From the NCBI GenBank assembly GCA_964385615.1, contig CAYLPP010000012.1, forward strand, positions 16,865-80,864: a DNA stretch of 64,000 nucleotides, written 5' to 3'. Below, piece after piece: positions 496 through 17,963 of this stretch. A program made the translations under genes and the position numbers. Within the stretch, counting starts at the first letter, position 1. The number at the start of each line of letters is the position of its first letter. The notes below the pieces were generated by a model. The model had not been told where the DNA came from. It worked only from the letters and a program-made list of their open reading frames with translations, and did no database searches. The stretch comes from an uncultured bacterium. Its GTDB lineage: Bacteria > Omnitrophota > Omnitrophia > Omnitrophales > Aquincolibacteriaceae.

Positions 496-1410
496 TTAAT
501 GGTAATGGACCGTTTTACCGAAAAAGCGCCACTGGATCAGCGTAAAAATAAAAACAATGATAAAAAGCACCCACGCGATAGCCGCGGCATAGCCCATCTT
601 GTGCCACTGAAACGCGTTGTTAAAAAGATAATAGATCAAGGTCGTGGTTGAACCATTAGGTCCCCCGCCCGTCATAATATAAGCCGGATCGAAACCCGCC
701 TGGAAACCGCCGATCACGCTCATGATCGCGATAAAAAAAGTCGTGGGCGAAATCTGAGGCCAGGTCACAGCCCAGAATTTCTGCCAGGGGTTAGCGCCGT
801 CCACTTCCGCCGCATCATAAAGATCGCGGGGCACACCCTGAAGAGCGGCCAAATAAAGAATCATATTGTATCCGCCCACCGTCTGCCACACGCCCATGAT
901 AATCAGCGCCGGCTTGGCCCAGCTCTCATCCGTCAGCCATTGCGGGCCGTGAAGAGACAACCCGACAATTTCACCGAACCGGGAAATCGCCATATTCAGC
1001 ACACCGAACTCCGGGTTGTAAATCAGCCGCCACAGCATATAAATCGCGACGCCTGAGCAAAGCGTCGGTAAAAAGTAAACCGTGCGGAAGAAAACAATGC
1101 CTTTAAGCTTCTGGTTCATGGCCATTCCAAGAAGCAGTGAACCGGTCATGGAAAGCGGAATGCAAAGCATCATGTAAACCGTGTTCCAGGAATACTTCCA
1201 GAAATAGGGATCTCTCAAAAGCGAGATAAAATTATCAAGACCGACAAACTTCGGCGCGGACAAAAGATCCCAGTCCACGAAACTCAAAGCCATCGAAGCC
1301 ACAACCGGAATCAAAGTGAAAAGCATGAACCCGATAAAATTCGGCATCAAAAAGCCGTACCCTGCAACCGCTTCATTAAAGGAACTGGATCTAAGCTTGC
1401 TGTTTTTCAT
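496..1410 (-). CDS. carbohydrate ABC transporter permease (MalF/UgpA-type)
   Basis: 304 aa with multiple TM segments and an EAA-like loop ([23 protein letters not shown]). The start overlaps the clpX stop by 4 bp (ATGA). Confidence 0.8.
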
Positions 1411-2669
1411 GCCGACTTAACCCACTCCCCGCCTCGAAGCAGCGCCGGAGCCTGCTTGCCCTCGACCACTTCGCGCGAAACGATGCATTCGGAAACATTA
1501 CTTTCAGAGGGAATATCGTACATCACATCCAGCATCAAGGTTTCCAGGATAGAGCGAAGCGCGCGGGCACCCGTTCCCTTACGAATAGCCTTGCGGGCAA
1601 TTTCTTCAAGTGCGTCCGGCATGAACGTCAGTTTCACGCCTTCCATTTTAAAGAGCTCTTCATACTGTTTGATCAGCGCGTTTTTGGGTTCTTTCAGAAC
1701 ACGCACCAGGTCGGATTCATTCAAGGCGTGCAGCGCACCGGTAACCGCGAAACGGCCGATGAATTCCGGGATCAAACCAAACTTCATTAAATCTTCAGTT
1801 TCAACCCGTTCCAGCATCTCACCGACATTCTGAGGCTTACTGCTTTCCGCAGCCGGGGCGCCGAAGCCCATCGACTTATTGGAAACGCGGCGTTCAATAA
1901 TCTTGTCCAGATTCGAAAACATTCCTCCGCAAATGAACAGAATGTTTTTCGTGTTGATCTGGATATATTCCTGCTGAGGGTGCTTGCGCCCGCCCTGCGG
2001 AGGCACGTTAGCGACCGTTCCCTCCAGAATTTTTAAAAGCGCCTGCTGAACGCCCTCACCCGAAACGTCACGGGTAATGGAAACGTTTTCAGACGTACGC
2101 GCGATCTTATCGATTTCATCAATATAAATAATCCCCAGCTCAGCGCGCTTCACATCGAAGTTCGCGGCCTGAAGAAGGCGGAGCAGAACATTTTCAACGT
2201 CTTCGCCGACATAACCGGCTTCCGTTAACGCGGTCGCGTCAGCGATCGCGAACGGCACATCCAGAAGCTGAGCCAGCGTGCGCGCGAAAAGCGTTTTACC
2301 GGAACCGGTCGGCCCCATGAGCATAATGTTGCTCTTCTCAAGCTCAACATCGTCACTCTTACGGTTCTTAACCCGTTTGTAATGATTGTGAACGCAAACC
2401 GAAACCTGTTTCTTGGCTTTTTCCTGCCCGATGATGTACTGATCAAGCTTAGCTTTAATTTCGCGGGGCTTGGGAACTGAAAGGCCTTCGGAAACATCAT
2501 ACTGTTTAATGTAGCTGGGCGCGTCCTTGCTGAGGATGTCACCGCAGATGCGAATGCAGATGTCGCAAATATAGACCCCGGGCCCGGCAAAAATCTTTCG
2601 GACTTCCTTGCGCTTATCGCGGCCGCAAAAGGAACACCGTTCGGAAATCATCGGCGTTAATCTCCTCAA
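1407..2669 (-). CDS. clpX: ATP-dependent Clp protease ATP-binding subunit ClpX
   Basis: N-terminal C4 zinc ribbon ([10 protein letters not shown]...ICDICIRIC), Walker [18 protein letters not shown], Walker [11 protein letters not shown], and a sensor-2 box. Confidence 0.95.
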
Positions 2670-2806: not shown

Positions 2807-5800
2807 TTACGCCGCAGAACCAATGACCCGGCTGACCTTTTCTTCAAATAAAGCCTCGGCCAAGGCCGTATTGACCCCGAAGGCCAAACGCCCTCCGGAC
2901 TGGGTCAGCGTGATTAAGCTCTGAAAATCCCGCTCAAAAAGGTTCAAACGGCGCAGAAGCTCGTCGCGGATCTCCTGCGGTTTTCCCCTGTAGTTTTCAT
3001 CTTGAGAAAGATCGGCCATATGAATCAGGGCCCGGCTGACCACTTTGCCGATCCAACGGGCAGCTTCCGGATTTTTGCGCTGAAGCGCCTCAAGATCCGC
3101 AGGATTCAAAAACAACGGCAAAAACATTTCATTAATCGCAATCTTGCTGCCCAGAAACGCCGCCGGTACTTCCGCCTGCTCTGACTGAATGGCATTTGTC
3201 TTTTCTACGTGAACATCGCGGACCTGGATTGCCAAATCAGAAAGCCCCTTCCTGAAAACTTCAGGAACACGGCCGTCTTTCAAAAGCTCTCCAACAACGC
3301 CTTTATCCAGACCGCTTAAAAAGCCGGCCAGAAAATGATCATCTATCTTACCATCAGGAAGAACCAGGCCCACAGCGAATTTCCGGCTCACCGCGCCTGA
3401 GATTTGATCAAGTCCGGAATCCAGATCATTCATGACAGCCTGCACAGCATCAAAACGCGAAACATCCGCTTGCGCCAGCATTTTCAGCCGGAGAGCTTCT
3501 TTATTTTTACGGTACTGCGCAATTAAATCAGCAATCACGCTTTCATCAATCTGAACCGCCACGGCCCGGCTCTCATTTCCAGGCGCAAGTGCTTCGGCAA
3601 CCAGCTTTACCGCGTCGGCCTTAGGCGCGATTCTTACTTCAGAGCGGGCTGACAGCTCTGTTCTAAGATCACCCCAAGCATCATCCTCAGAAACCTGATC
3701 TTTAACTAAAACAGCGCCGGCTTCAATCTGAGCATACGAGGACCCGGAATTCGCCTGAGGCTGAATTCCCAAAATATCCTTTATTGAATATTTCCGGTAG
3801 CCTACACGGTACGCATCTTGAAATGAAACCACCACAGCGGGCAGTTCTTCATTCTTGAAAATTCCGCCATCCAGATTAGCCTTGCTCAAATAAATACCGT
3901 CCTCCGGATTAAAAACACCTTCAGGAGCGGTCTCTCCCGCTTCAAATTCTCTTTGGTTATATTCAATACGCCGGGGCGTAGGCGCGGAATTTCCATCGTA
4001 AGACCATTCATAATCAATGAAATACCGGTCTGCCGCCGCGTCTTTGGTAATTTTTACTTTGCCCATATCCACGCCCATGGCTTCAAGTTCCCAGAGAAGG
4101 GGCGCTTTGGCAAAACCAATGGCCCCTAAAACAAGCGTCGAGTTATATCCAAGCGCGGCTTTTTCGGACTGATACACTTCCCGCAAAAGTCGGAGTGTTT
4201 TTTCGTCAAGAGTTCCTTCAAACGGAAGCGCGTCAAAAATTCTGTAATAAGAAGAATCCGTGAGGTAGGAGGCCGTTTCAATGTCTCCGCCCCCCAAGGG
4301 GTTGACAACACGGCCTTGATATCCCTTTGTCTTCAGAAAATCACGCACTTTTACATATTTCTCAAGCCGGTCCCGGCTGATGAACCGGTTCCGTAAAACC
4401 GCGGGATTCGCGGGAAAATTCGAAACCTTGAAGTTTCCCGAAGCCGTTAAGTTGGAAAGCTGTTTCCGGTATTCCGCAATTTGAGCGTCTGAAGTCAGAT
4501 AACGTTGGTTCACTTCATTGACCACCCGCACGACGGATGGAACCAAAACGGACGCTTTCGCTTCAGGGAAATACTCAACGGCAATACCGCGTATCGACTG
4601 AGTTTTAAGCGTGGCAGGTGCGGAAGTTTGTTTCACGCGCATCGCTGGCAGCGCGTCGGCAGTACGATCCGCGTAACCGTCTTTTAGGATTCCTTCCTTT
4701 TTCAGGAGACGAATCAAATAGGTCTGGACGTCGGGTTTAAAATTAATCGGTTCAGAGACCGCGGAGACGCGTTTGGCGGTCGCCAGCTGCTCCAAAACAT
4801 AAACAGCCATAGCAGCTTCACGCAAATTTTCAGGAACCGTTTGATCAATAATTTCACGAGCGAAAGAGACATTCAAAAGAAATTGCTCTAAAATTCTCGT
4901 CTCCTCCGGTGCGGCTCGAACTTCGGAGCGGGTGAAGGAATTTAAAAAATTTCCAAGCTTCTCCCAGTCGTGCATGACTTTACGCGTGCGTGTTTTTTTA
5001 ATACCGTTCCAAAACTTGACCGGCGCGTTGTCTGAAACTGCTCCGATTGGAGTATTTTCAAGCGCCGGCTGTATGCCGGGCTGGTCCGCAGCCTGAATAA
5101 GTTCCATCAGGCTCAAAGATCTCTGAACCGATGTCTCCCTCGAATTTCTGCTGTAATACCCTGAAAAGAAATCCCATTGGAAGGCCAGGAGAAAAGGCAG
5201 GCCCGCGGCATATTCACGGCTTAAATCCTGATGCCACTCATAAAGTTTTCCGGCATTAGCCTGAATGGCCGCTTCAAGCTCATCAAAATAGGGCTGTCCC
5301 GCCAGCTCTCGCCGTGTTTTCGCGAGTTCTCCCGTAAATCTCTTTTTTCCAGGGCCGGCTAAAACAGGGCTCAAGCTGAAAATGACTTTCAGTAGCGAAA
5401 TTTTCAGGAGTTTTCGAACTGATCCCTGGTTTTCTTTCGTCACTTCGGCCAACTGATCTTTAGACAACTGCGCGATAACCCAGAGCACGTCGGGCGAGAA
5501 AGCTTCGACATCTTCGTTGTCCAGCCAGGAATGAAACTCCAGAGAACCCTGCACATGAAAAGCGGCTGCAAGAAGACTGAACGCTGTCAGAGTGTAAGCG
5601 TACTCGCCTGGCGCGTACCGGAAGCGCCGTGAAAAATCAATGTAATCGCTGACAGCATCATCTCCATGAAAATACGAAAAAGCCATGCTGAATAATTCGG
5701 AGAGAGTCAGTTTATTATTTTGGGGAAATTTTTTACCAAACTTTGTAAGAATCAGCTCGAGCGCCGCGAATTGTTTCGCGTTAAGCTGATCCAGCAGAAC

Positions 5801-8800
5801 AATCTGGCCGGCATTCTTATATTGTTCTGCCTGTTCACGGGCATTCAGCGGACCATCGAGCACAAGCAGGGCCAGCCCTTCCAGCACCAGCTGGGCATAG
5901 TCGGCATCTGAAAGTTCGCTGTGATAATCTTCTTCACTCTCAAAGCCTGTACCGTGGACGGACTCAAAAATCGCGGCGCGGCTATCATAATTGTGAAAAT
6001 AAAGACGTTTGCCGTTATCCGACAGGTTTTCATAAATTTGTCTGGCAATTCTGAAATACCCTTTACCGTCGAGAGAATTCCACTGCCGGTTCACGGAATT
6101 AATTAATTTTGAATAATCAACCCGAATTTCGGAGCGTGCGTCATTTCGCGGCCGGCCGAGTCCGCCCTGCTCAATTCCAATTTCCGAATACGGAATATTA
6201 TGGTCTCTGATCGCTTTTCTGATCTGCCGTGAAGTTAACCCTGACGCTCTGGCAACATTCGCAACCGTTCTGCGAAGTTTCGGATCGAGTCCTTGCGCAA
6301 GCCCTCGAAGATAAACGACCCACTCTTCGCGGCTTCTCTGAATAATTCTTTCTCGCACCATTCCCACGGAAGAGCGCGAAATTTTGTGGTGAGACATCGC
6401 GCCGCGGATGGCGGCGGCGTCCAATTCTCCATTTGAAACAGCCGCAACGTTTTCAGGCGTAGGGGCTTGTCCTTTTTCAAGCTTTGCGACAAGTTTCGTC
6501 AAATAGGTGCGCCATTCTTCTTCCGTCCGCGCGCGCATTTCGGAGCGGAGCGCGCTATTCCTTTCAGATGCCGCGGGAGACTCATTATTCCGCTTTAATT
6601 TTTCAAGCATTTCGCTTAACTCAAGGAAAGCGCTCTCATTTATATCTCCCCGGGAATATCTTTCCTTTAAATCAGATTGAGTAGCGTCAATATTTAAACG
6701 GCTCATATCAATACGCCTTAAAAACCCAGCCTCTTCAGCTACTTTAAGCCCTTTGAAACCAAGAGGGGCTATCGCGGCAGCTTCATCAGAAATACTAGCG
6801 CCTAATTGGTCATTCTCCGCGCTAAGGGCATAGTCCAGCCCGGTTTCACTGACAAGCCAATTATTGGGTAAATCAAAATATAAAGTTACTCCGTCGCTTG
6901 GCGGTTTTATGTTTCCATTATGGAAAATATACCGTAGAGGCATTGCATATAAACCGTGCTGAAGTATGGTTGGCAGATATCGAATATTGGTATTATGAAG
7001 AACTAATGTAGTTCCACTAGGGCTTGCGGGATGTTTTTCTTGCCCCAATGAAATTTCCGATATTAGAAACGAATAGATTGTTTGGCCTTCCGAAAATTTC
7101 TTCCCTATAAAAACCTTATAGGGGCCACCGGGGGGCATTTTCCAATGCAGGGGCAACAGTTGAGCAACCATTGTTTGCCTAAAGGTCGCCTTATCCGCGA
7201 TTGCTCCTTGGAAAAGCCAAAACGGAAGCACTAAAATTTTATCATTTTCGCCTGTATTTTGTTCTACCCAGCCGTATAAATCATCTATTTCCGAAAAGTC
7301 TTGTGCGGTAATTTGCAGGGAGCTGGAAGAAATGCTTTTATCAGACCGCACTTCAGATCTCGCGGGCTTTGTAAAAAGATATTCCCCGACTTTCTCATCA
7401 ATGGGAGCAACCTCAAAAGAAATGGTTCTAAAAGCTCTGAAAAACTCATCGTCTATACGGCTGTAAGGAATAATCAGCGCGCGTCCCCCGGGCTTTAAGA
7501 CACGGTTAATCTCGAGGGCCGTTTCGTAGTAAGCCATTACCGGTTTATCAATAATCTGATACCAGTAAGCAGGATCAAAAAGACCAACACTGATAACCAG
7601 GTCCACGCTTGAGTCTTCAAACGGCATTTTCTGAGCCACACCCTTTACGTAAAAGCCGGCAGGTTCCGCGGGGGCATTCGGGTCAAGTCCCACAATATCT
7701 TTACCTTGCTTGCGGAGTTCGGTAACCAGATTCATAGGAGTCAATATATCGGGAGCAAAAAGACCTTCACTGTCGGTTTCGAGCCCGATGTCCACGATTT
7801 TTCCGGAAAGAAGTTCATCAACTGAAATCCCGAGTTTTCTTTCAATCTGTTTAGCCGTTAACTGAAAATGCGCCATATGAATGGAGGAATTCATCCGCGC
7901 TTCGGAGCGGGCGGGAAATTTTGAAACCCATTCCCCCACAGTTTTGGCATCCTTCGAAAAAGTTTCATCATCAGACAATTCCCGGCTGTAACCCGCGGGA
8001 AGCTGATGACCCAAAGTCAGAACGGGAATTTTCGCGAAAGACGTCAAGAACGCTTCGCGCTTCATACCTTTCACCGATACATAAGCATCGTCCAAAATGG
8101 ATTCTTCGGCTGCTCCGGAAATCCCTTCGTGAGTCTTAACATCTCCCAATGCCCGCGAAGAATCCAGGAAGATGACAAATTCCACGGGGTGGACATCGTC
8201 ATCCTCAAGAACGGGCAGGGGTTTCTCGGCGGCGGGACCCTCCCCGATATGTTTGTATTTTGTGACAACCGTCTCAGGCAGAAGGTTCCCGACGGCAACC
8301 GGCTGGCCTTGCTGATTCAGCATGACATAAGTATTTTCATCATCATCCGCAAGAATTTTAAAAGCCGGCGCTCCGGAACGATTCGACAAATAATAAGCCA
8401 GCGTTGATTTTCCGGTATCGGAGGGCGCCATGATAATTCCTGTTTTTCCCGTCACGGAATCCTGAACTAAACCCGCGTGAAGGATCGCTACAGGCCGGTC
8501 CTGCCACCGGGTTAACTCTTGAACACCTTCTAAATCTTTTTCGGTCTCAGCTTTTTTAATGACGGTCTGCCACATGAGAGACCGTATGGTTTCGTAAACC
8601 GGTTTTTCCGGCCGGGCAAGCCCGTCAAACCACGGGAAATTTGGATCAAAGCTATAAGGATCTTTTCTTAAAGAATTATCTCCGTTTCCAATCACATCCA
8701 GAAACCAGTCCACCTTGTACTTTTTCAGTACTGCGACCTGAGCCTTGCCTAAAGGGAAACCGTTAAAATCCGTGATTGCCGGCGAAGCGGATTGATCCGC

Positions 8801-11800
8801 GCGAAGTTCGGAACGGACCATTGTGATATTCGCCAAAGTTCCCGTAACGTCAATTTCAAAATGCATACGCCCTTCACGCATTAAATCCTGAATCTGCTTC
8901 AATGTTTGACGGGCAGTTTCCGAACTCAAGGAAATCGGCTGACTCTGACCTTCAAGCTGAATCTCGGTGACTCCTTTGGCGGCCAGTGCGTCCGCGAGAT
9001 TTTCTTTTTCAAGATCCACGAAAGGCTTCTTTTCATCCCAGGTACTCAAAAAGCGCTCATACCGTTCCTTCCACGCAGGCACAATGCGGTTCACAAACTC
9101 CCCACCTTTTCTCGCGAACTCCGCCTCTTTCAAAGCTCCGAGTCCGGTCAAGTGCGGAACAACCATCGCGCTCGCCAGCTGAATGGTCGGAATGACGGCT
9201 TCAACCGTCATCTGATTTTTACGCGACGCATCGAGAAACTTTTGAAAAAGATTATTCGTGTACTGCAGGATATGATCCTGCTCATCGGGTCTCAAAGTCT
9301 CAAGGCTGGCGTAAAAAGCCGCGCTTAAAAGCAGAATCTGGCGCTCTTTCTCAGAAGTTCCCGCGAGAGTGCGTCCATTGATAAAAACAACCCACCCGGA
9401 AGATTGAGGGAAAAGAATATTTTCGTACCCGGCCTGGTGAAAAATAGTGCCGACATTCTGAAATGCCTTATCGCCCGCGGGAATCACCGATAAACCCGCC
9501 TGACGTTCCTTGAGTGCGGTATTCAAAACCGAAATAACCGCGGGGTCGTTATAAACATAAACACCTGTATCAAGTCTCACACCGTAGCGCCTGTCGATCG
9601 GCTCAAGGGTGCGGCTTTCGGAACGGGAAAGAACACGAATCGCCGTTGAAGAAGACTCGATTAAATCCAGAATTTCATCCGGCCGGCCCATTACGCCCAG
9701 AGAGTGATCTTCCCAGTGGTTTCTTAAATAATAAGCAAGATCTCCAAGCAGATTTAGCGCGCGGGTAAATTGACCGGCTAAAAACTCGTCTTTAACCGTG
9801 TCAAAAATTCCGGAGCGTTCTCCGTCCCAGGCAGATAGAATTTCTTTGGCGCGCTTAAGATCATGCAGTAATTTTTCAGCGCTGGATCCGCCCGGAACCG
9901 GCGTTTTAAAAAAACGGGAGAACTCCCCTGTCGGCCGAACGCCGGGGGCAAGCGTCACAAGAGCGAGAATATCTTCGCCATAACCAGGAACTTCAGACAT
10001 GGAGTAATCACTGCTCCGGCCGATGGCTTCATACATTTTACGCGCGTCCGCGGAACGGTAGTTAGCCGAATACCAGCGCTGAACCGCACCGCTCCTTAAA
10101 AGCAGTTTGATCGCGCGCTGCATATACCCTTTGCCTGTAATCACGCTTTTCAAATCGGGTGCCAGCACTTCCCAATCCCTGCCGTTTTCACGGTAAGCCA
10201 GGCTGGCTTTGGCGGCGAGTTCCCTTGAAGTCCGGTCAAAAACAAGAAGGAAATACTGATCTTCATCATACCCGTAGGGCGTCGGCATTTCTGATCGCAC
10301 CAAAATGACATGAAGATCTTTAAACTCCTCTGAGAACTCCGGTCCGTCTACGAGAAGAGCGATTTCATTCCCTTTGGATTTTTCAGTTTTTGGATATTCC
10401 CGGACAAGCACCGCCTGATCTGAATCATTCAAAGCGCGGACTTCCGACCGCGGTGAAACGAAATAAACAACTCCCGTTCGAGATTCTTTCAGGTAAGCCG
10501 TATGAATTGAAAATTCATCGACATTCATATCTTCCCGAAGATCAAAACGAAGATTCGCGCGGTCCGCGATAAAGGGAACCGCCTGCTTGTAGGCCGAGAT
10601 AAGCGTTTCACCCAGATCGTTAACGATCAGATAGCTTCCGGAAGGGCTGATTGACTTTAGCGCCGTCAAAAAAATGTCGCGCATTCTTTGAATTAAATAA
10701 GGGAAGACTGCTGCCGGCGCGAAGTTTGAGTACAAAGAGTATTCGACTGAACGGTACACGGGGTTCATCATTGCCAGCGCGAAAATATAATCGTAGTGTT
10801 TCCCTTTCAGCTCACTGTAGCTTTGGTAAGCGGGAATTTCCTGGTCCAGACCAAAGCCTCTGTGAAGTTCTACCTGAAAAGACAAATATTCTGAGTCAGG
10901 CTCAAGAACCGACGTTTTTAAACCGAGTTTTTCCAAAACCACCGGAAGGTAATCGCCGCTTCCAGGGCCCAAAACCAGCGCGGTTTTACCGGCTTCCAGC
11001 TTCAAACTTTTCAGTTTCTCAATAAGTCTCTGCTGGGTCTGATCATCAAAATCAGTCAGCCCGGAATGCGCGGCCACTTCCTCAATGACCGCGGAAATTT
11101 TCTCTTGCGTCACGAGTCTCGATTCGGAGCGGGCGGAAGCCTGTTTTCTAAAAACGGCCCACTCGTAACCTGAAACAGGATCCCACGGATCGCGCTCCTT
11201 TGAAACCCAGGATTCTTTTCGAATTCTGCCCAAGGGAATCAAAATCCGTTTTCTCTCCGCAACAGAAGCTTGAGGTTCCGCGCGGGCATAAATAGCCGCC
11301 TGCGAAACCAGAACCTTTCCGCCTTCAGCGGTTGCTTCCAGGATTTTGTTCCAAAAAGCAGTTTCATGCGCCAAATCTCCTCCCCACCCGGCATTTTTAA
11401 CGATTGAGAAATCTCCCTGAACCTCTGCCTCTTCATATTTTTTAGGCACAAGAACAACTTTAACTTCCCGGCCGGTAACCCGGTGTTTAAGCGTGAGAGT
11501 TAAATCCTCCCCCTTCTTAAGCGTTTCTTCCCAGCTTTTATAAAAACTGAAATCCCAGTAATTCTCAATTTCAAAGTCTCCGCTCCTGAGCCAGTCAATG
11601 GAGAACCCGACAGAAATCCGGGCAAGTTCTGAATAAGAGGGATCCACGAGATAAATCGTCTCAAGTCCCGGGAAAAGAGAAACCATCAGAGAGAGCGTTT
11701 CATTATCTTTGCCCGAAGCCAGGTAAACACCTTTTTTAGGCTCAAATTTTTCTTCCTGGAATAATTGTTTCATTTCAGGAATCCAGTCTCGCTCACCAGC

Positions 11801-14800
11801 ATTGATCCGGTCTTCCGTTCTGAGTTCGGAACGGGCCGGCAGCGCAATCACCTGAGACGCTGGATTCGCTTCCGACTCTGTACTGACTTCCGTCCCAGCC
11901 AAAATCAGCTGATCGCCGGACCGTTGGTAAAGATCCCAATCCACGACCGGTTTATCGAAAGCGTTTGTTCCAATATTGATGTTGTAAATCTCTCCGCCGT
12001 CACGAAGAGCGGTTCCCATCTGCTGGAGGGCTTTATTAATAGTTTCATCTGAAAAATAACTGACCCGGCCCCGGACCAGCAGGCCGGAGACACGCATAAA
12101 ATCGTATTGCTCCGGCAAAGGCAGAAAAATATCCTGGCGTTTAAACTCGAGAATGTCCGGATGCAGGCGGGCAAACTCTTCGGCTTCAGGGCTTAGCAGA
12201 CTCACATAAGGAAGCTTCTCTTTTCGAACACTATCCATTTTTCCAAAAATCCGGGTACCTGACTCAGCAAGCGCGTTCCAGGCGGTCGATCCCCGTTTCA
12301 CAATTCCGGATTTTTCGGTCACAATCTGAAGGAGTTCCCCTGAATCGCTAAAAAGATAAACCGCGAATTCTCCCTGCACCACATAAAAACCCAGAGTCCG
12401 GTCATAGCCGGTAATCTTGACGCCTTTATCCTGATAATGACGCGCCAGCTCCAGAGTGGTCACGCCTTCAGAAACCGCGAAATCGGCAATTTTTAATTTT
12501 TTATCTTTGTTTTCAGATTTCTCCATAAAACGGTCGAGCACCGCAAAGGTGCGGTCAAGCCTTCCCGGCCAGGTGCGTCTGTTGATAATATCCGCTTTTC
12601 CATCCGTTCCGCCTTCCCGAAAAATGACCGCCTGAAACTGAATTTGCCGGAGAATCTTCAGAAGGTCTTTTTGTTTTTTTCCTGAAAGTTTCGGATAAAG
12701 TTCTCGAAGGCGGGCGTAGGTCAATAAATTGCCGTTATAGGCGAAAATGGTCACTAAGAGTTCATATTCTTCAGAGTCCGCGTCCGCGGCCAGGAAAAAA
12801 GGAATTAAACTTTCGACATTCTGATTGTAAAGCTGTTCAGCCGCGCTCGCCATTTCCGAAAGCCGCGGTTTGGAAAATCTTTCAAGAGGAGATGTTCCTC
12901 TTAGCAATTCAGCTTCTTCACGCAAAAACTCGGGGAACGGCATCCGAAGCTCAGAACGAGCACCCTGGACTTTCTCGATTGAAATTTCAGGAAGACTTTC
13001 AGCCTGAGGAATCGTTCTTCTAAAATCGACGGGTCCTTCGTCCCAATTGATCAGCGCTTTAAAATTCAGGCCCGCGTAGAATTTCTCCGCGTCTTTACTT
13101 ACATTCTGAAGAATAAAGTTTTGAATTCCCTGCCGTTGAGCCAGCATCATAAGCGTGATCATCAAAGCCCGGCCGGCACCGCGGTATTGCCCGCGGACCG
13201 ATTCAGAAACATACAAAGCTTCCGAAAAAGCTGAGGCGATGCCATCTTCAGGCGCGTGCAGAAAAGAAAACGATTCCTGCATTTCAACCCGGTCGCGGTA
13301 AAAACGGGCGTGGGCAAAGCCCGCTTCCCGCGGGCCGGCTTCAGTCATTTGAAAAACTCTAAGCCGGTAACGCTTGAAGGTAATAACATCTTCTATCGAA
13401 AGCTGGAATTCGAAGACTGAACCATCATCCGCCGTAATGCTGAATTTTCCGCCGGTTTCAGGATCCAGAGAGTTCAGAATCTCAGCGCGCAGTTCAGAGC
13501 GCTTGGGATAAGTCAGGCCTTTCTGAACGCGGAAATTAAGAATCCTGCCTCCCTGGGGCTCGCGCTGACCGGGCGGAACATGAATATTAATGGAGTGAAG
13601 CGGGCCGGGTCTTTTAGTCTCACGGGTCAAATCGATTTTGATCAGCTTGGGTGAACGAAATAACGGAACCTGATGAGAAAATCTTTCAAAAGTTCCCGGC
13701 CTCTGCGCGTCTTCGTAAACAAACGTGATAATAACGGGCGGTTCCTGCTCAAAATCTTCTCCGGGATTCGGCGCCGCGGCCTCATTCCACAAGGCAATTT
13801 TAAATTCATCCATATCCCCCAACGGCCGGCCGTCTTCCCGGCTTAGAACAATATCCACCGGAGGAAGACCGAAACGGGTTGTAATCTGAAAACCGCTGGA
13901 AGGATCATGTTTAAACGGCACTGTATCAAAAAGAGGCGGCGTTAAAACCCGGACCGATGAATCAAACTTCTGAAGGTCTTCGTCGCCGAAATCATCCGTC
14001 AGGCTGACCGCAGGGTCCAGCACTTGAACGTTTACAGAGGGTTTGGGAAGATTTTTATTTCCCCCGCTTGAATCAAAATACCAGTATAAAACTCCGCCAA
14101 CCGCAAGCATTAACGATACAGCAAGAAGGAGAATTCCCCCAAAATTAAGGAACCTGGCTGAAACCACATCCGCCTGCTTCCGCGCGGAAGATTTCAGATT
14201 GGACTCTGCCAAAAGCAAATAGATCAGAAAGAGCCCTGAAAAAATCTTGCTGTTCTCCGGATCAATGGAAACTTCCGGAAGTGTGAGGGGCTGCTCCGCC
14301 TGCCCGCCGGACAAAGTAAAGTGAAACCGGACGCGCCCTTCTTCCGCGGTCAAATAAAACGGACTGGCTTGAGTTTCGTTTAACCCCAGTTCCCGGCGGA
14401 TCAATCCGTTTAATTTCTCCGCGAAATCTTCCGGGGAAGATCCTTTGATTTCCTCTCCCCCGTCATCATTTCCATCAAGCGGCTTCTTGCGCAATTCCAG
14501 TTTCAACTCGTCACCGGCCCACGCGCCCTTTTGAACAATCAACAAACGGTCCGGATCATATTGCAGGCTCCAAAGCGCGCCGTCGTGGTGCCCCATAACG
14601 CTGAATTTTTTCCATGCCGGATTGAGTTTCTTTAAAATCGAGTCGATTTCGGAGGCCGCCGTCCAGACAGGCTCCCAGTCTTTACGCTCCTTAAATATGG
14701 ACGTCTCCGATAAAACAGTAACGGCTCGGGCCAATTTCTCCTGATCCGCCTCACCCTGCATCCGCAATTCCGAACGGCGAAATTCAACGACAAGGAGTCC

Positions 14801-17614
14801 TGGTTTATCGCGGATATTAACCGCTTCAACTGAATCGACCGTAAATCCGTTTTGAGTCAAAAAAGCCCGGACTTCCTGTTCATCCTTGAACACCTGCCCC
14901 AGATGAGAGACAAGCGCGTCAATTTCCCGCGAAGGAACATTCAAAGCGATTCCCGCCTGTCTTAAAAAACCTTCGCCTGCCTCTTTTTCCTCAAACGGCG
15001 CGTAGCGGGAAACATAGTCAAAATATTCCTGATACATTTGCGCCAAAATACTATCGACGTCAGAACTGACCACGGTAAAAACAGGGTTCCACCGCTGTAT
15101 ATTCTGCTTCACAATAAACATCGCCTTTGCTCCCAGTTCAGCGGAATGAGGCTTCAAGCTTTTACTCATAGCGTCAAGATACGTTTGAGCGGTGCTTTCA
15201 TATTCATCCAAAGAAACCGCCCGATCTAAAAGGCGCCGGGTTAAGTTAAGAAATAAAATGCTCTGCCTAAGATCGTTAAACTGAAATTGACGGGAGGTAT
15301 CGATCGCAGAATTTTTAACATGAAATCCAAAAAGAAAACGGGCTCTGGGAGCGGCTAAACTTTTCAGCACTTCGAGAGTTTTTAAACGGTCCGTGTATTC
15401 AAAAGAATAAAGTCCGTAAATCAAATCCTGAGGGTCTTTCACGTCAAGTGAAGTCACCTCTTCAGCCGGTTTTACAATGACATTAAAACCCGGACGCATA
15501 ATGTTGCGTATCCGGCCCTTATCCAGCGAAGGTTCAATCACTGTGATCGGGTAATGCTGGTCTGAATCAAGCTCCTCTCTCAAATCCATAGAAACGGATA
15601 AATCTCCGTCGCCAACAGCCAGAATACGGGCCTGACCCCCGGCCAGAGAAACCAACCGCTTGACCATCGCCGTTTGTGAGATAACCGATACTTCATCCCG
15701 CGAGTCACGAGGCACTCCAACAAAATCATTAGTCAGCTCTCCCCAGGCCTGAATTAAACGATTTGAAGCCCGGAGTTCGGAGCGGGATTTAAGATCAAAC
15801 AGGTCCCGGGTTAGTATCGCCGCACCGCTGACACGAGGGATAATATTGGAAGATTTAAAGAGGTTGAGAACCTCAGGCGTGTTTAAACGATTTTGAGAAT
15901 CCAGAGTTTTCATTTTGAGAAGAAAATTTTCTATATTTTCTTTCCACTTTAGGCTGAAGCCGTCCGCAGACTCAGAACGAAAGACTTCGTCAAGATAACG
16001 GAGATACTGCCCCGCTTGTCCGGTTTTTTCTTCCGAAGCAAGATCGCGGATAATCTGATCCCGCCAAGTCTTCAGAAGTATGGGGTTTTCAGAGCCCGCC
16101 TTTAAAAGCTGATCCCGGAGAGCCCGGGTGAAACCCTCAGAAACCGACAGTTTGCCGTTTTCAGGCTTTAAATAACCTTTCCACGAAATCTCGCCGTTCA
16201 TCTGAGAGCGGTAAATGGAATCGTCGGGCATCGCGTTAATCGCGGGAATAACCGTGATATAAGAAATCCCGTTCTCCCGCAGCTGTTCCTTCAGTCCGGC
16301 GGTATGAAAACCGCCGGCAACCATCACGGCCTGATTTCGGCCGTTTTCACGCATCAGCCTCTGAAGATTCTTAAAGAAAGCGCGGTCACGCTGTTCCGCG
16401 TTTTGATAGAAAGCTGAGCTTGTTTCAAACCGCCCTTCTTTTTTAATCTTTTCCCAACCTTCACGGCTAAGTTCAAGGCGCACCGCTTTTTCCTGAAGGT
16501 CAAGCAGCTCACTCTCCCGGTCGAGCTTTCTTTCTTCGTTGTTGCGGAAAAGCTTTTCCTTCGCGTCACCCGCGTATTTTTCAAATTCGCGGAAAACCCG
16601 GGTTCCTTCCATTTCGCGCAGACGCGCTTCATGCCTGGCCTGACGCTGAAGTTCCGGTGAAAGCGAAAAAGGAATACTGTATTTTGAAGCTGTTTCTTTG
16701 AGATACATCAGAAAAGACCGGGCGGACAGCGTTGAGGTTTTAAAAGCCTGGAGGGATTCGTTGAATTTCCTCAGATCTTCCTCAGAGAATTTGTTCAAAA
16801 AGGAGGTGAAACTGTCAGAAATTTTTAACACCTTCGTTTCAAATGAGGCATCTGCCGGCATCTGGATTTCCTTGATGAGAGCTTCAAGATCTGATCCTTT
16901 TTCCGGCGGCAAGATAAGAGCGAGCTGTTCAAGTATCTGCGAAAAATTTTCTGCGTTTTCTGAAAACTTCCGCAGGGACTGGTCGAGATCAAAAAGTGGC
17001 TGAGAATAAATTTCCTTTTTCTTTTTTTCAAGGACTTCAGCGCGTGCGTGATTCTCTTTTGAAAGAACCGGTTCTTCAGCCATCGTCTGAGAGTAGAGAT
17101 TTAAGCCGTCTTCGTAAAGATTCCAGTCTTCAGCCCCGTGATAAACCGCGGGCGTGTTCCCCAAAAGAGCGGCCGCGGCTCCGCCGGGCAATTCCCCCTT
17201 TTCCATGAACGCTGAAAGAACTTTTTCAAGCTGACGCTTTTCCGGAAAATTTTTAAAAATCCGGGCATCCAGCTCTGAAGAAGCGCCTTCCAAAGCCACG
17301 ATTGAAATCCCGTAATTTTCTTCAAAATGGCTGATCAGATTCTGAATGTTCTTTTGCGCTTCCGGCACTGAGTGAGCGTCTTGAATAAGAACGACGGTCT
17401 GGCCGGACGAACCCTGGTAGGAATCTTCAATGCTTCCACTCTCGCCCGGAACTGAAACCTGTCCAATTTCCCCCGGAAACTTAGCTCCAGCAACTGAGGA
17501 AGGACCCGCCGGTGCCGCTATAGCTGGAAAAGGCTTCGCTCCCGTGAGCAGAAAGCTCAGAGACAAAGCTAGCGCGATTGTTTTATGTAAAAAATTTTTG
17601 ATTTTTTGAGGCAT
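2807..17614 (-). CDS. giant (4935 aa) secreted/membrane-associated multidomain protein. It has an N-terminal signal peptide and a TraB/GumN-like region, then several class-I SAM-methyltransferase-like modules, a GNAT-like module and an HprK-like P-loop module. Fifteen R-S-E-x-R linker motifs punctuate it.
   Basis: A single uninterrupted ORF of 14.8 kb. The N-terminus MPQKIKNFLHKTIALALSLSFLLTGAKPFPAIAAPA looks like a signal peptide. Motifs recognised by eye:
- TraB/GumN-like: VVLIQDAHS ... AVMVAGGFHTAGL.
- MTase motif I and post-I-like: ARILAVGDGD, KIADFAVSEGVTT...LRDGGEIY, ALVLGPGSGDY...PSGSYLIV, VDLVISVGLF...INRVLKPGGRALI.
- GNAT-like: YRGAGRALMITLMMLAQRQGIQNFILQNVSKDAEKFYAGLNF.
- HprK-like: LHAGLVQDSVTGKTGIIMAPSDTGKSTLAYYLSNRSGAPAFKILADDDE.
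- Hydrophobic TM stretch: FGGILLLAVSLMLAVGGVLYWYF.
Domain calls are from motif inspection only. Confidence 0.85.
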   Translation of the reverse strand: MPQKIKNFLHKTIALALSLSFLLTGAKPFPAIAAPAGPSSVAGAKFPGEIGQVSVPGESGSIEDSYQGSSGQTVVLIQDAHSVPEAQKNIQNLISHFEENYGISIVALEGASSELDARIFKNFPEKRQLEKVLSAFMEKGELPGGAAAALLGNTPAVYHGAEDWNLYEDGLNLYSQTMAEEPVLSKENHARAEVLEKKKKEIYSQPLFDLDQSLRKFSENAENFSQILEQLALILPPEKGSDLEALIKEIQMPADASFETKVLKISDSFTSFLNKFSEEDLRKFNESLQAFKTSTLSARSFLMYLKETASKYSIPFSLSPELQRQARHEARLREMEGTRVFREFEKYAGDAKEKLFRNNEERKLDRESELLDLQEKAVRLELSREGWEKIKKEGRFETSSAFYQNAEQRDRAFFKNLQRLMRENGRNQAVMVAGGFHTAGLKEQLRENGISYITVIPAINAMPDDSIYRSQMNGEISWKGYLKPENGKLSVSEGFTRALRDQLLKAGSENPILLKTWRDQIIRDLASEEKTGQAGQYLRYLDEVFRSESADGFSLKWKENIENFLLKMKTLDSQNRLNTPEVLNLFKSSNIIPRVSGAAILTRDLFDLKSRSELRASNRLIQAWGELTNDFVGVPRDSRDEVSVISQTAMVKRLVSLAGGQARILAVGDGDLSVSMDLREELDSDQHYPITVIEPSLDKGRIRNIMRPGFNVIVKPAEEVTSLDVKDPQDLIYGLYSFEYTDRLKTLEVLKSLAAPRARFLFGFHVKNSAIDTSRQFQFNDLRQSILFLNLTRRLLDRAVSLDEYESTAQTYLDAMSKSLKPHSAELGAKAMFIVKQNIQRWNPVFTVVSSDVDSILAQMYQEYFDYVSRYAPFEEKEAGEGFLRQAGIALNVPSREIDALVSHLGQVFKDEQEVRAFLTQNGFTVDSVEAVNIRDKPGLLVVEFRRSELRMQGEADQEKLARAVTVLSETSIFKERKDWEPVWTAASEIDSILKKLNPAWKKFSVMGHHDGALWSLQYDPDRLLIVQKGAWAGDELKLELRKKPLDGNDDGGEEIKGSSPEDFAEKLNGLIRRELGLNETQASPFYLTAEEGRVRFHFTLSGGQAEQPLTLPEVSIDPENSKIFSGLFLIYLLLAESNLKSSARKQADVVSARFLNFGGILLLAVSLMLAVGGVLYWYFDSSGGNKNLPKPSVNVQVLDPAVSLTDDFGDEDLQKFDSSVRVLTPPLFDTVPFKHDPSSGFQITTRFGLPPVDIVLSREDGRPLGDMDEFKIALWNEAAAPNPGEDFEQEPPVIITFVYEDAQRPGTFERFSHQVPLFRSPKLIKIDLTRETKRPGPLHSINIHVPPGQREPQGGRILNFRVQKGLTYPKRSELRAEILNSLDPETGGKFSITADDGSVFEFQLSIEDVITFKRYRLRVFQMTEAGPREAGFAHARFYRDRVEMQESFSFLHAPEDGIASAFSEALYVSESVRGQYRGAGRALMITLMMLAQRQGIQNFILQNVSKDAEKFYAGLNFKALINWDEGPVDFRRTIPQAESLPEISIEKVQGARSELRMPFPEFLREEAELLRGTSPLERFSKPRLSEMASAAEQLYNQNVESLIPFFLAADADSEEYELLVTIFAYNGNLLTYARLRELYPKLSGKKQKDLLKILRQIQFQAVIFREGGTDGKADIINRRTWPGRLDRTFAVLDRFMEKSENKDKKLKIADFAVSEGVTTLELARHYQDKGVKITGYDRTLGFYVVQGEFAVYLFSDSGELLQIVTEKSGIVKRGSTAWNALAESGTRIFGKMDSVRKEKLPYVSLLSPEAEEFARLHPDILEFKRQDIFLPLPEQYDFMRVSGLLVRGRVSYFSDETINKALQQMGTALRDGGEIYNINIGTNAFDKPVVDWDLYQRSGDQLILAGTEVSTESEANPASQVIALPARSELRTEDRINAGERDWIPEMKQLFQEEKFEPKKGVYLASGKDNETLSLMVSLFPGLETIYLVDPSYSELARISVGFSIDWLRSGDFEIENYWDFSFYKSWEETLKKGEDLTLTLKHRVTGREVKVVLVPKKYEEAEVQGDFSIVKNAGWGGDLAHETAFWNKILEATAEGGKVLVSQAAIYARAEPQASVAERKRILIPLGRIRKESWVSKERDPWDPVSGYEWAVFRKQASARSESRLVTQEKISAVIEEVAAHSGLTDFDDQTQQRLIEKLKSLKLEAGKTALVLGPGSGDYLPVVLEKLGLKTSVLEPDSEYLSFQVELHRGFGLDQEIPAYQSYSELKGKHYDYIFALAMMNPVYRSVEYSLYSNFAPAAVFPYLIQRMRDIFLTALKSISPSGSYLIVNDLGETLISAYKQAVPFIADRANLRFDLREDMNVDEFSIHTAYLKESRTGVVYFVSPRSEVRALNDSDQAVLVREYPKTEKSKGNEIALLVDGPEFSEEFKDLHVILVRSEMPTPYGYDEDQYFLLVFDRTSRELAAKASLAYRENGRDWEVLAPDLKSVITGKGYMQRAIKLLLRSGAVQRWYSANYRSADARKMYEAIGRSSDYSMSEVPGYGEDILALVTLAPGVRPTGEFSRFFKTPVPGGSSAEKLLHDLKRAKEILSAWDGERSGIFDTVKDEFLAGQFTRALNLLGDLAYYLRNHWEDHSLGVMGRPDEILDLIESSSTAIRVLSRSESRTLEPIDRRYGVRLDTGVYVYNDPAVISVLNTALKERQAGLSVIPAGDKAFQNVGTIFHQAGYENILFPQSSGWVVFINGRTLAGTSEKERQILLLSAAFYASLETLRPDEQDHILQYTNNLFQKFLDASRKNQMTVEAVIPTIQLASAMVVPHLTGLGALKEAEFARKGGEFVNRIVPAWKERYERFLSTWDEKKPFVDLEKENLADALAAKGVTEIQLEGQSQPISLSSETARQTLKQIQDLMREGRMHFEIDVTGTLANITMVRSELRADQSASPAITDFNGFPLGKAQVAVLKKYKVDWFLDVIGNGDNSLRKDPYSFDPNFPWFDGLARPEKPVYETIRSLMWQTVIKKAETEKDLEGVQELTRWQDRPVAILHAGLVQDSVTGKTGIIMAPSDTGKSTLAYYLSNRSGAPAFKILADDDENTYVMLNQQGQPVAVGNLLPETVVTKYKHIGEGPAAEKPLPVLEDDDVHPVEFVIFLDSSRALGDVKTHEGISGAAEESILDDAYVSVKGMKREAFLTSFAKIPVLTLGHQLPAGYSRELSDDETFSKDAKTVGEWVSKFPARSEARMNSSIHMAHFQLTAKQIERKLGISVDELLSGKIVDIGLETDSEGLFAPDILTPMNLVTELRKQGKDIVGLDPNAPAEPAGFYVKGVAQKMPFEDSSVDLVISVGLFDPAYWYQIIDKPVMAYYETALEINRVLKPGGRALIIPYSRIDDEFFRAFRTISFEVAPIDEKVGEYLFTKPARSEVRSDKSISSSSLQITAQDFSEIDDLYGWVEQNTGENDKILVLPFWLFQGAIADKATFRQTMVAQLLPLHWKMPPGGPYKVFIGKKFSEGQTIYSFLISEISLGQEKHPASPSGTTLVLHNTNIRYLPTILQHGLYAMPLRYIFHNGNIKPPSDGVTLYFDLPNNWLVSETGLDYALSAENDQLGASISDEAAAIAPLGFKGLKVAEEAGFLRRIDMSRLNIDATQSDLKERYSRGDINESAFLELSEMLEKLKRNNESPAASERNSALRSEMRARTEEEWRTYLTKLVAKLEKGQAPTPENVAAVSNGELDAAAIRGAMSHHKISRSSVGMVRERIIQRSREEWVVYLRGLAQGLDPKLRRTVANVARASGLTSRQIRKAIRDHNIPYSEIGIEQGGLGRPRNDARSEIRVDYSKLINSVNRQWNSLDGKGYFRIARQIYENLSDNGKRLYFHNYDSRAAIFESVHGTGFESEEDYHSELSDADYAQLVLEGLALLVLDGPLNAREQAEQYKNAGQIVLLDQLNAKQFAALELILTKFGKKFPQNNKLTLSELFSMAFSYFHGDDAVSDYIDFSRRFRYAPGEYAYTLTAFSLLAAAFHVQGSLEFHSWLDNEDVEAFSPDVLWVIAQLSKDQLAEVTKENQGSVRKLLKISLLKVIFSLSPVLAGPGKKRFTGELAKTRRELAGQPYFDELEAAIQANAGKLYEWHQDLSREYAAGLPFLLAFQWDFFSGYYSRNSRETSVQRSLSLMELIQAADQPGIQPALENTPIGAVSDNAPVKFWNGIKKTRTRKVMHDWEKLGNFLNSFTRSEVRAAPEETRILEQFLLNVSFAREIIDQTVPENLREAAMAVYVLEQLATAKRVSAVSEPINFKPDVQTYLIRLLKKEGILKDGYADRTADALPAMRVKQTSAPATLKTQSIRGIAVEYFPEAKASVLVPSVVRVVNEVNQRYLTSDAQIAEYRKQLSNLTASGNFKVSNFPANPAVLRNRFISRDRLEKYVKVRDFLKTKGYQGRVVNPLGGGDIETASYLTDSSYYRIFDALPFEGTLDEKTLRLLREVYQSEKAALGYNSTLVLGAIGFAKAPLLWELEAMGVDMGKVKITKDAAADRYFIDYEWSYDGNSAPTPRRIEYNQREFEAGETAPEGVFNPEDGIYLSKANLDGGIFKNEELPAVVVSFQDAYRVGYRKYSIKDILGIQPQANSGSSYAQIEAGAVLVKDQVSEDDAWGDLRTELSARSEVRIAPKADAVKLVAEALAPGNESRAVAVQIDESVIADLIAQYRKNKEALRLKMLAQADVSRFDAVQAVMNDLDSGLDQISGAVSRKFAVGLVLPDGKIDDHFLAGFLSGLDKGVVGELLKDGRVPEVFRKGLSDLAIQVRDVHVEKTNAIQSEQAEVPAAFLGSKIAINEMFLPLFLNPADLEALQRKNPEAARWIGKVVSRALIHMADLSQDENYRGKPQEIRDELLRRLNLFERDFQSLITLTQSGGRLAFGVNTALAEALFEEKVSRVIGSAA

Positions 17615-17892
17615 AAGGATATCTTTAGGCTTTTAAAAAGATGCTCAAAAGATACCACACGTATAGGAGGATTCCAAGTTAGAGGCTGTATAGGAGAAAA
17701 GAGAGGTGTCTTTAACTAACAATAACTAGCATAAACTTCTCAGCAAGCTTACTCGCAGAAGCAAAGCTGCCTTCGCCGGAGAAAGTCTTCTTTAAACTTT
17801 CCCGGTGAAACCGGCTATTCACTAGATCAGCTGCCGCACCGTAGGCAGTCTTCCTTGTACTGCCGCGGTGCAGTAGCTTTGCATGAGCAAAG

Positions 17893-17963
17893 CTGCCCGG
17901 CCTGGACTCGAACCAGGAATCATGCCTCCAAAGGGCAGTGTGATACCATTTCACCACCGGGCA
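17893..17963 (-). tRNA. tRNA-Gln (anticodon UUG)
   Basis: The reverse complement folds as a cloverleaf:
- acceptor stem UGCCCGG/CCGGGCA with discriminator G;
- D-stem GUGA/UCAC with loop AAUGGUA;
- anticodon loop CUUUGGA (UUG);
- T-arm CCUGG-UUCGAGU-CCAGG.
It is 71 nt with no encoded CCA. The ORF-track entries overlapping it (17712-18056, 17883-18131) are spurious. Confidence 0.75.

Follow-up and report, generated by a model that had tools for sequence, protein, structure and literature searches.

We examined a 64,000-nucleotide stretch of contig CAYLPP010000012.1 (the window, used here for the whole of that stretch) from an uncultured bacterium of the phylum Omnitrophota, in which one open reading frame (ORF) encodes a giant protein of 4,935 amino acids (aa), and found that this protein is punctuated from end to end by the pentapeptide R-S-E-x-R. 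These 15 separators are its defining feature and were absent from the original prediction, a reading of the DNA that had described a string of catalytic units in a single gene. Based on the sequence patterns set out below, we interpret the giant as a polyprotein precursor with R-S-E-x-R as its putative processing sites, giving cleavage a probability of roughly 0.55, and with lower confidence we propose its N-terminal TIKI-like domain as the candidate processing protease. The motif is real, is constrained at the peptide level, extends across a whole family and is specific to these giants.

R-S-E-x-R separators divide an intact giant reading frame

As originally predicted, the 14.8-kb frame is uninterrupted: it starts with ATG and runs for 4,935 codons with no internal stop, corresponding to a full-length chain of 540 kDa. 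We scored codon usage as log-odds, with 13 housekeeping genes from the window as the training set, and found the coding signal in the gene's own frame over the whole length, in 31 of 31 overlapping 300-codon windows; the gene is also even in GC content from end to end. Neither measure gives any sign of a frameshift or chimeric join. An assembly chimera or degenerate pseudo-ORF, in which the long frame would be an artefact of metagenome assembly, could appeal to the identical protein in NCBI being a singleton (on an 80.9-kb contig) and to the central modules having no orthologue in the metagenome collection, so that this exact gene is without a second assembly. The in-frame coding score, the uniform GC content and the same punctuation from start to end all speak against such an artefact, as do dozens of independent assemblies with ORFs of the same architecture (2,000 to more than 6,000 aa), among them multi-thousand-residue relatives with the same starting domain such as P0009 (6,157 aa) and P0011 (5,930 aa), and we consider it highly improbable.

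The giant ORF and its separators are as follows.

2807-17614, minus strand: giant ORF, 4,935 aa plus stop, with a signal peptide, a TIKI-like head module and 15 cargo modules
15770-15784, minus strand: separator 1, RSELR, aa 611-615
14762-14776, minus strand: separator 2, RSELR, aa 947-951
13487-13501, minus strand: separator 3, RSELR, aa 1372-1376
12944-12958, minus strand: separator 4, RSELR, aa 1553-1557
11819-11833, minus strand: separator 5, RSELR, aa 1928-1932, overlapping a second, loose match, RTEDR
11117-11131, minus strand: separator 6, RSESR, aa 2162-2166
10436-10450, minus strand: separator 7, RSEVR, aa 2389-2393
9611-9625, minus strand: separator 8, RSESR, aa 2664-2668
8801-8815, minus strand: separator 9, RSELR, aa 2934-2938
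7895-7909, minus strand: separator 10, RSEAR, aa 3236-3240
7346-7360, minus strand: separator 11, RSEVR, aa 3419-3423
6533-6547, minus strand: separator 12, RSEMR, aa 3690-3694
6122-6136, minus strand: separator 13, RSEIR, aa 3827-3831
4916-4930, minus strand: separator 14, RSEVR, aa 4229-4233
3632-3646, minus strand: separator 15, RSEVR, aa 4657-4661

Residue shuffles of the protein contained a mean of 0.13 such pentapeptides (shuffle maximum 4) against the 15 observed, and none occurred in the 18,456 residues of the window's remaining long stretches without a stop. The codons of the separators differ from copy to copy (Arg as CGC, CGT, CGG or AGA; Ser as TCC, TCG or TCT; Glu as GAA or GAG), which indicates selection on the peptide, and we therefore rejected a DNA-level repeat as their source. 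A related possibility is a scar or recombination site in the DNA through which cassettes are exchanged, the motif then being without function in the protein. The evident shuffling of modules between proteins speaks for such a site. Against it, all five positions show free use of synonymous codons, and what is conserved is the amino acid, with Ser, Ala and Thr exchanged by lineage; this leaves the explanation with next to no credibility.

The separators delimit 16 segments, each 137-615 aa long, among which we detected no significant pairwise similarity. The giant is thus not a repeat protein, and an internal-repeat or adhesin-like architecture was rejected; in this respect the original description of a string of unrelated, mostly enzyme-like units rather than adhesin or Ig-like repeats was borne out.

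The separator is shared by a family of Omnitrophota giants

We assessed how widely this architecture occurs with a degenerate-pattern scan of one genome per species, which located the head domain at 240 loci, essentially all of them in Candidatus Omnitrophota and often several per genome. Counts on loci refer hereafter to 80 retrieved related loci with 10-kb flanks, at which many ORFs are cut off by the flank; among these, 48 head-domain ORFs are at least 2,000 aa long, the typical size being thousands of residues. The density of R-[S/A/T]-E-x-R was 1.8 per 1000 aa in head-domain ORFs as opposed to 0.04 in ordinary ORFs of 150-499 aa at the same loci. Across the 368 copies that make up the consensus, in which both Arg are fixed by the search pattern, position 2 is Ser in 285, Ala in 63 and Thr in 20, position 3 is Glu in 360 and Asp in 8, and position 4 is hydrophobic with enrichment of Met, Val and Leu. 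Pro, Ser and Thr are enriched in the flanks and Tyr, Cys, Phe and His depleted (Pro 1.44-fold, Tyr 0.42-fold and Cys 0.07-fold), while the residue directly after the separator (+1) is rich in Ser, Thr and Ala and depleted in Leu, Ile, Phe, Trp, Tyr and Pro.

Given that Ala replaces Ser in 17% of copies, we rejected the separator Ser as a nucleophile or phospho-acceptor; the exchange fits a protease subsite. The choice among Ser, Ala and Thr co-varies by genome (clustering statistic 287 versus a permutation maximum of 273), and in one metagenome-assembled genome (MAG) 10 of the 12 copies are of the rare R-T-E-x-R form, as would be expected for a lineage-specific reader. In 45 of the 65 homologues with a motif downstream of GGFH, an invariant element of the head domain, the first separator follows GGFH by 173-252 aa, and this fixed distance indicates that a separator ends the head module as well. 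We found no conserved neighbour gene at the giants: the best neighbour cluster is a housekeeping one present at 9 of the 80 loci, and no protease gene is among the conserved neighbours. The head domain is consequently the only constant partner of the motif.

Two further arrangements were observed within the family. In a 3,090-aa ORF of MAG HK-STAS-OMNI-5 (L002:10001-19270), D-R-T-E-M-R lies inside a 21-residue tandem unit, GLHKxFDSLDRTEMRPVTDVT, in directly adjoining copies at aa 1834-1855 and 2308-2371; cleavage at the motif, should it occur, would release a series of identical 21-mers, by analogy with a peptide-precursor array. Separately, three giant ORFs that extend past the 5' end of their loci (L036:1-9500, L070:1-8750 and L019:1-3960, all on the plus strand, with 14, 6 and 5 motifs, respectively) lie directly upstream of another head-domain giant, suggesting that the putative polyprotein genes can stand in tandem.

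Separators bound independently shufflable modules

Outside the head domain, only 68 high-scoring segment pairs were found among 81 proteins; 35% of their ends lie within 10 aa of a motif, compared with 7% for random positions, and the order of shared modules differs between proteins. For modules 9-12 we performed an exhaustive HMMER search of 1.84 billion representatives, and each module returned a separate homologue set, mostly in other giants at unrelated positions, with some homologues standing alone as proteins of 220-344 aa. Module 9, residues 1-270 of the query, is matched by a span of 2-273, and module 11, residues 573-755 of the query, by spans of about 565-765; in the motif-rich subjects P0009, P0011, P0014 and P0053 the homologous block has motifs within a few residues on its flanks. 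Collectively, these data demonstrate that the separators bound independently shufflable modules, and a short junction motif repeated between independent, unrelated units with linker-like flanks is the arrangement of a polyprotein.

The same arrangement might instead belong to an uncleaved mega-enzyme or scaffold, a membrane-anchored string of beads in which R-S-E-x-R would be a linker element used for partner docking, as a hinge or as a regulatory site. Published Omnitrophota giants have mostly been read in this way, as single membrane-associated proteins, some head-domain giants are without the motif, and the linker-like flank composition fits a non-cleaved linker equally well. We nevertheless regard an uncleaved chain as unlikely: three invariant charged residues in an otherwise free linker and a selective +1 position are typical of processing sites, as are standalone single-module homologues, free permutation and family-specific alternative separators, and a docking motif would not be expected at the border of each module, the head domain's own end among them.

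The head domain resembles TIKI-superfamily endopeptidases

The head module comprises the following features.

15770-17614, minus strand: module 1 (head), aa 1-615, ending in the first separator
17516-17614, minus strand: Sec-type signal peptide, aa 1-33, MPQKIKNFLHK / TIALALSLSFLLTG / AKPFPAIA, with A following the predicted site
16175-17437, minus strand: predicted TIKI/TraB/ChaN/EreA-fold hydrolase core, aa ~60-480, with a ~300-aa helical insertion between E109 and R409
17372-17386, minus strand: IQDAH, aa 77-81, with invariant D79-x-H81, the counterpart of RRSP E3900-x-H3902
17279-17296, minus strand: ALEGAS, aa 107-112, with invariant E109, 28 residues past H81
16376-16399, minus strand: AEQRDRAF, aa 406-413, with invariant R409, the counterpart of the conserved basic residue of TIKI proteases (RRSP R4001)
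16304-16315, minus strand: GGFH, aa 434-437, with invariant H437, 28 residues past R409

The signal-peptide-like N-terminus that had been noted earlier is a canonical Sec signal peptide, with a positive n-region, a 14-residue hydrophobic core and an A-I-A/A site at about residue 33 predicted by the -3/-1 rule, and an N-terminal hydrophobic segment is kept in nearly all head-domain homologues. Behind it, I77-Q-D-A-H81, Q87, E109-G110, D116, F402-Y403, R409, G434-G-F-H437 and Y468 are invariant or near-invariant in 35-70 homologues. The Ras-cleaving endopeptidase RRSP has the catalytic set E3900, H3902, E3930 and H4030 together with the conserved basic R4001, and Bcr135 the catalytic pair H85/E113 (PMC6254334). 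The H-to-E spacing of 28 in the head domain equals that of RRSP (H3902-E3930, 28) and of Bcr135 (H85-E113, 28), the R-to-H spacing is 28 as opposed to 29 in RRSP (R4001-H4030), and the first acidic position is Asp (D79) where RRSP has Glu. At the level of sequence, the residues and spacings are those of the 2His/2Glu set plus basic residue of the superfamily, and the predicted fold is the alpha/beta, parallel beta-sheet core common to ChaN, Bcr135/EreA, HopBA1, RRSP and TraB.

An earlier claim of a TraB/GumN-like N-terminal region therefore proved right at the superfamily level. We assign the head domain by predicted fold to the TIKI/TraB/GumN superfamily, and it looks catalytically competent since it has the same residue pattern and spacings as RRSP and Bcr135. 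It differs from the TIKI/TraB/PrgY/GumN, erythromycin esterase and ChaN proteins in its ~300-residue helical insertion and in the Asp at the first acidic position. A search of PDB sequences with the head-domain profile returned only coiled-coil noise from the helical insertion, and few relatives of the domain were found in the word-indexed protein database.

Proposed processing of the precursor

In the mechanism that we infer, which extends to cleavage, the cutting enzyme, the exact scissile bond and the cargo's place of action (own cytoplasm, periplasm or prey cell), the Sec signal peptide would take the N-terminus out of the cytoplasm. The head module (core at aa ~60-480) would act as a TIKI/TraB/EreA-superfamily hydrolase with the full endopeptidase set D79-x-H81, E109, R409 and H437. 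It is followed by 15 unrelated cargo modules, predicted to comprise one S-adenosylmethionine (SAM) methyltransferase, one GNAT-like module, one P-loop kinase-like module and 12 without an assignable fold, each closed by R-S-E-x-R in a Pro/Ser/Thr-rich, aromatic-poor linker, and these pentapeptides would be the endoproteolytic sites. The +1 position takes small or polar residues and no bulky ones, which is why the cut would most likely fall after the second Arg of the separator. The sites would be read by the head domain, in cis or on paralogues in the same cell, and the modules thereby freed as separate proteins; we consider this domain the best candidate protease because it is the only constant partner of the motif and has the TIKI endopeptidase fold and residues. 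If cleavage occurs in this way, the family would represent polyproteins of cellular origin, a single gene giving up to 19 products and a TIKI-fold protease processing them, and an unusual route to co-express and rapidly reshuffle large enzyme sets in small genomes.

Several observations weigh against this proposal. Foldseek support for the fold of the head domain was not significant (E 0.11), and the Pfam matches that point to the superfamily were weak (Erythro_esteras at E 1e-3 and 19.3 bits against a cut-off of 26.4; Cofac_haem_bdg at E 0.09; in 2 of 35 members only). The fold and residues are compatible with a protease, but the superfamily also includes non-proteases, such as erythromycin esterases and the haem-binding ChaN. 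The head domain is predicted to be exported, whereas the recognisable cargo (SAM methyltransferase, GNAT and P-loop) is of cytoplasmic type with cytoplasmic cofactors, so that the protease would meet its substrate only if the whole chain were exported; speculatively, an exported chain could use SAM, acetyl-CoA or ATP only inside another cell, which would fit the predatory or parasitic lifestyle proposed for the phylum and recall MARTX toxins. Four giants whose head domain is more divergent (P0024, of 7,727 aa, P0027, P0030 and P0036; hmmsearch E 1e-26 to 1e-78, IQDLH/IQDVH...GGFH) contain one motif or none over lengths of 3,964-7,727 aa, and simple k-mer counting revealed no alternative recurrent separator in them; head domain and motif thus do not always occur together. 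Conversely, P0053 (1,810 aa) is motif-rich and begins with a signal peptide, yet lacks a TIKI-like head domain; action in cis is therefore not the sole mode, and any processing of P0053 would occur in trans. P0053 lies on an 8.9-kb Logan contig, has 11 motifs (6.1 per 1000 aa) and includes a Sigma70_r4 module (E 2.4e-15).

Both kinds of exception speak for another reading, in which the precursor would be cut at R-S-E-x-R by some other enzyme, either an unlinked bacterial Arg-specific protease or one of the prey, with the head domain serving instead in ester or peptide hydrolysis at the prey envelope or in cofactor binding. The S8 and C39 peptidase domains that West-Roberts et al. note in further giants of the phylum, and the non-protease members of the superfamily, are consistent with this alternative. 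However, no protease gene is conserved beside the giants, the head domain keeps the full RRSP-type endopeptidase catalytic set, and a separator follows the head domain directly, at a fixed distance, in 45 of 65 homologues. We accordingly hold a different protease to be rather improbable, and retain the head domain as the candidate for processing the polyprotein.

Relation to known giant proteins and polyproteins

Giant multi-enzyme ORFs of Omnitrophota have already been described (West-Roberts et al. 2023, bioRxiv 10.1101/2023.11.21.568195; bioRxiv 10.64898/2026.06.07.730766). The original prediction of an extremely rare kind of frame thus holds for the reality of the frame and not for its rarity, such genes being a published hallmark of this phylum. 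Both papers suggest cleavage into several products, name C39 and S8 peptidases as possible processors and state that the cleavage points are unknown, and peptides have been detected from a different Omnitrophota giant ORF. In the 'Archaeovorin'-type and 'multi-enzyme metabolic cluster' giants, PF08241 and GNAT are among the commonest Pfams and annotated domains are few. Like these giants, the window protein comes from the same phylum and is a long single ORF tiled with unrelated enzyme domains, with PF08241 present, a weak GNAT match, a signal peptide and a transmembrane (TM) segment; at 4.9 kaa, as opposed to 30-147 kaa, its 4,935 aa fall below the 'giant' thresholds of 10-30 kaa used in the papers. 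Neither the separator motif nor a TIKI-like head domain appeared in the published Omnitrophota giant-gene papers or in full-text searches on the motif and on bacterial polyproteins. What is new is therefore the punctuation, together with the TIKI-fold domain that goes with it, the giant multi-enzyme ORF being of a kind already known. Through the separator, the published open question of whether such an ORF yields one protein or many, and where it is cut, becomes directly testable, and the separator provides an immediate computational rule for parsing giants into modules for structure and function prediction.

MARTX toxins offer a parallel in design, as giant secreted precursors of shuffled, unrelated effectors with a built-in protease acting at short inter-module sites, as we propose for the window protein, and the TIKI fold and catalytic residues predicted for the head domain are also those of RRSP, one of their effectors. 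The likeness is a functional analogy, with no sequence homology beyond the fold. MARTX processing is carried out by a cysteine protease domain and not by the TIKI domain, which is there a cargo and not the processor, and the glycine-rich repeats and type I secretion of MARTX toxins were not seen here: the whole-protein scan gave no Pfam match to Peptidase_C80 or RTX repeats, and the window protein has a Sec signal peptide instead. Polyprotein processing is not known from any member of the TIKI superfamily. Viral polyproteins (picornavirus 3C, nidovirus Mpro) likewise combine a single translation product, a built-in protease and short junction motifs between unrelated proteins, but their protease has another fold, whereas the window gene is cellular and chromosomal and its cargo is hypervariable between paralogues.

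Polymorphic toxins, reportedly treated by Zhang and colleagues in 2012, and the polyvalent proteins of phages and conjugative elements, reportedly treated by Iyer and colleagues in 2017, resemble this family in that an N-terminal part for trafficking or processing is conserved and the enzymatic modules are rapidly shuffled; both also have several paralogues in each genome and a diversity like that of conflict systems. The present family differs in having up to 19 modules per chain with a fixed pentapeptide between them, and Pfam and PADLOC searches of the window protein detected no known toxin, immunity or pre-toxin peptidase domain. Omnitrophota are thought to be predatory or parasitic nanobacteria, with giant ORFs as a signature of the phylum.

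Other giants carry different separators around related modules

Many giants with a methyltransferase module homologous to module 11 have no R-S-E-x-R and carry [AS]SSP[VIAL] at similar spacing instead, every 200-500 aa (21 copies in P0042, 17 in P0034, 9 in P0017, 8 in P0028 and 6 each in P0019 and P0020). The methyltransferase module of P0017 (2108-2278) lies between copies at 2100 and 2300, and that of P0020 (1597-1761) between copies at 1587 and 1778. Giants of this type have other conserved N-termini, for example FEQSGFAQ.AGQLDISGYF. A third separator type, DASAxGLAxP, occurs in P0012 (2,338 aa, Candidatus Omnitrophica, MBF0388255.1), whose methyltransferase module (452-614) is framed by DASAQGLAEP and DASAKGLADP (...PRDASAQGLAEPQ... 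and ...PVDASAKGLADPQ...), and in which the patterns 'QA.VD' and 'P.DAS' are present in 5 copies each. Source records place one member of each class in Omnitrophota, namely P0042 for the [AS]SSP type and P0012 for the DASA type.

Since homologous methyltransferase modules are framed by different separators, the separators look like family-specific punctuation around a shared module pool. A tentative generalisation, to which we give less than even odds, is that Omnitrophota giant genes are polyproteins with family-specific punctuation (at least three separators), each family having its own N-terminal domain; the R-S-E-x-R reader would then be a new, insertion-bearing branch of TIKI endopeptidases, and the modules a diversifying enzyme arsenal, possibly of prey effectors. 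Were this to hold, it would provide a simple rule for cutting proteins of 5-150 kaa into real functional units.

Content of the cargo modules

The cargo modules for which similarity or homologues were found, together with the hydrophobic hairpin of module 3, are listed below.

14075-14245, minus strand: hydrophobic hairpin in module 3, with a weak helix at aa 1124-1136, a basic loop and a strong TM helix at aa 1155-1180
12944-13486, minus strand: module 4, GNAT-like acetyltransferase, sub-threshold, aa 1377-1557, Acetyltransf_7 at E 3.4e-5 and 24.6 bits against a cut-off of 27
8801-9610, minus strand: module 9, aa 2669-2938, whose sole homologue is one motif-bounded module of P0009 (aa 4794-5065)
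7895-8800, minus strand: module 10, P-loop NTPase/kinase-like, aa 2939-3240, Walker A at aa 3063-3071
7346-7894, minus strand: module 11, class-I SAM-dependent methyltransferase, aa 3241-3423, Methyltransf_11 at aa 3298-3381 with 33.7 bits against a cut-off of 21.2
6533-7345, minus strand: module 12, aa 3424-3694, with homologues as a separate protein (P0031, 344 aa) and within the giants P0032 and P0053
2810-3631, minus strand: module 16, C-terminal, aa 4662-4935, with a homologue in the giant ORF of L026, likewise its C-terminal module (aa 2029-2305 of 2305)

Whole-protein and per-segment Pfam scans validated one class-I SAM methyltransferase, module 11, for which about 35 homologous modules exist in other giant proteins. 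The original count of four or five methyltransferases is not supported: module 11 alone is verified, and the claimed modules 2, 5, 6, 7 and 15 gave no significant profile match (module 5 against methyltransferase Pfam, E 0.14). The profile of the module-11 family detected no other segment (hhalign probability at most 1.2%), so that the multiple-methyltransferase claim rests only on glycine-rich motifs seen by eye. The GNAT-like module that had been suggested corresponds to module 4, where the match stays below its cut-off. The suggested HprK-like P-loop likewise stands in part: the Walker A of module 10 is kept in 6 homologues, whereas its similarity to HPr kinase is below threshold, both against PDB profiles (HprK at E 1.7) and in the homologous module of P0010 (Hpr_kinase_C, PF07475, 23.5 bits against a cut-off of 33.3), making module 10 possibly HPr-kinase-like. 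Its homologues occur both standalone (P0026, 250 aa) and within other giants. A single-sequence AF2 model of aa 2925-3435 (modules 10-11) reached a predicted local distance difference test score (pLDDT) of 31.

Module 13 gave faint helix-turn-helix and sigma-factor matches in Pfam, and for the remaining modules Pfam, NCBIfam and PADLOC made no assignment; PADLOC returned nothing, and NCBIfam weak UbiE-like matches at module 11 only. Besides the head module, module 16 is the only one common to any of the 80 related loci, sharing 32% identity with the L026 module and being C-terminal in both proteins; the window protein ends ...RVIGSAA. Modules 2-15 had no relative in these loci, jackhmmer included, modules 8-9 none in metagenome_contigs and modules 4-7 none in a word-indexed search of 5.8 billion proteins. 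The hydrophobic TM stretch noted earlier is present as one strong segment preceded by a weaker one, and this hairpin of module 3 is not conserved in the family, where downstream hydrophobic segments vary from 0 to 9 per relative. The coding log-odds falls to ~0.01 at modules 11-12 (window 6500-7900, aa ~3300-3600), compared with 0.12-0.27 elsewhere in the gene, and these modules may have been acquired recently.

Genomic context

The neighbouring genes occupy the positions originally claimed for them.

1407-2669, minus strand: clpX (AAA_2 and zf-C4_ClpX), directly downstream of the giant ORF on the same strand
17892-17963, minus strand: tRNA-Gln(ttg), upstream of the giant ORF

A functional link to the adjacent clpX found no support, as clpX is near the giants at 0 of the 80 related loci, and we consider the adjacency coincidental. 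The window is otherwise core chromosome (hisG, tsaD, gatA/gatB, rpoA, rpsD, secY, fusA and the ribosomal protein operon), on which ground a mobile-element context was rejected. Upstream of clpX there is no adjacent clpP in the window, the giant gene sitting in that place, and clpX (1407-2669, minus strand) is followed by an ABC-transporter permease gene (BPD_transp_1; 496-1410, minus strand).

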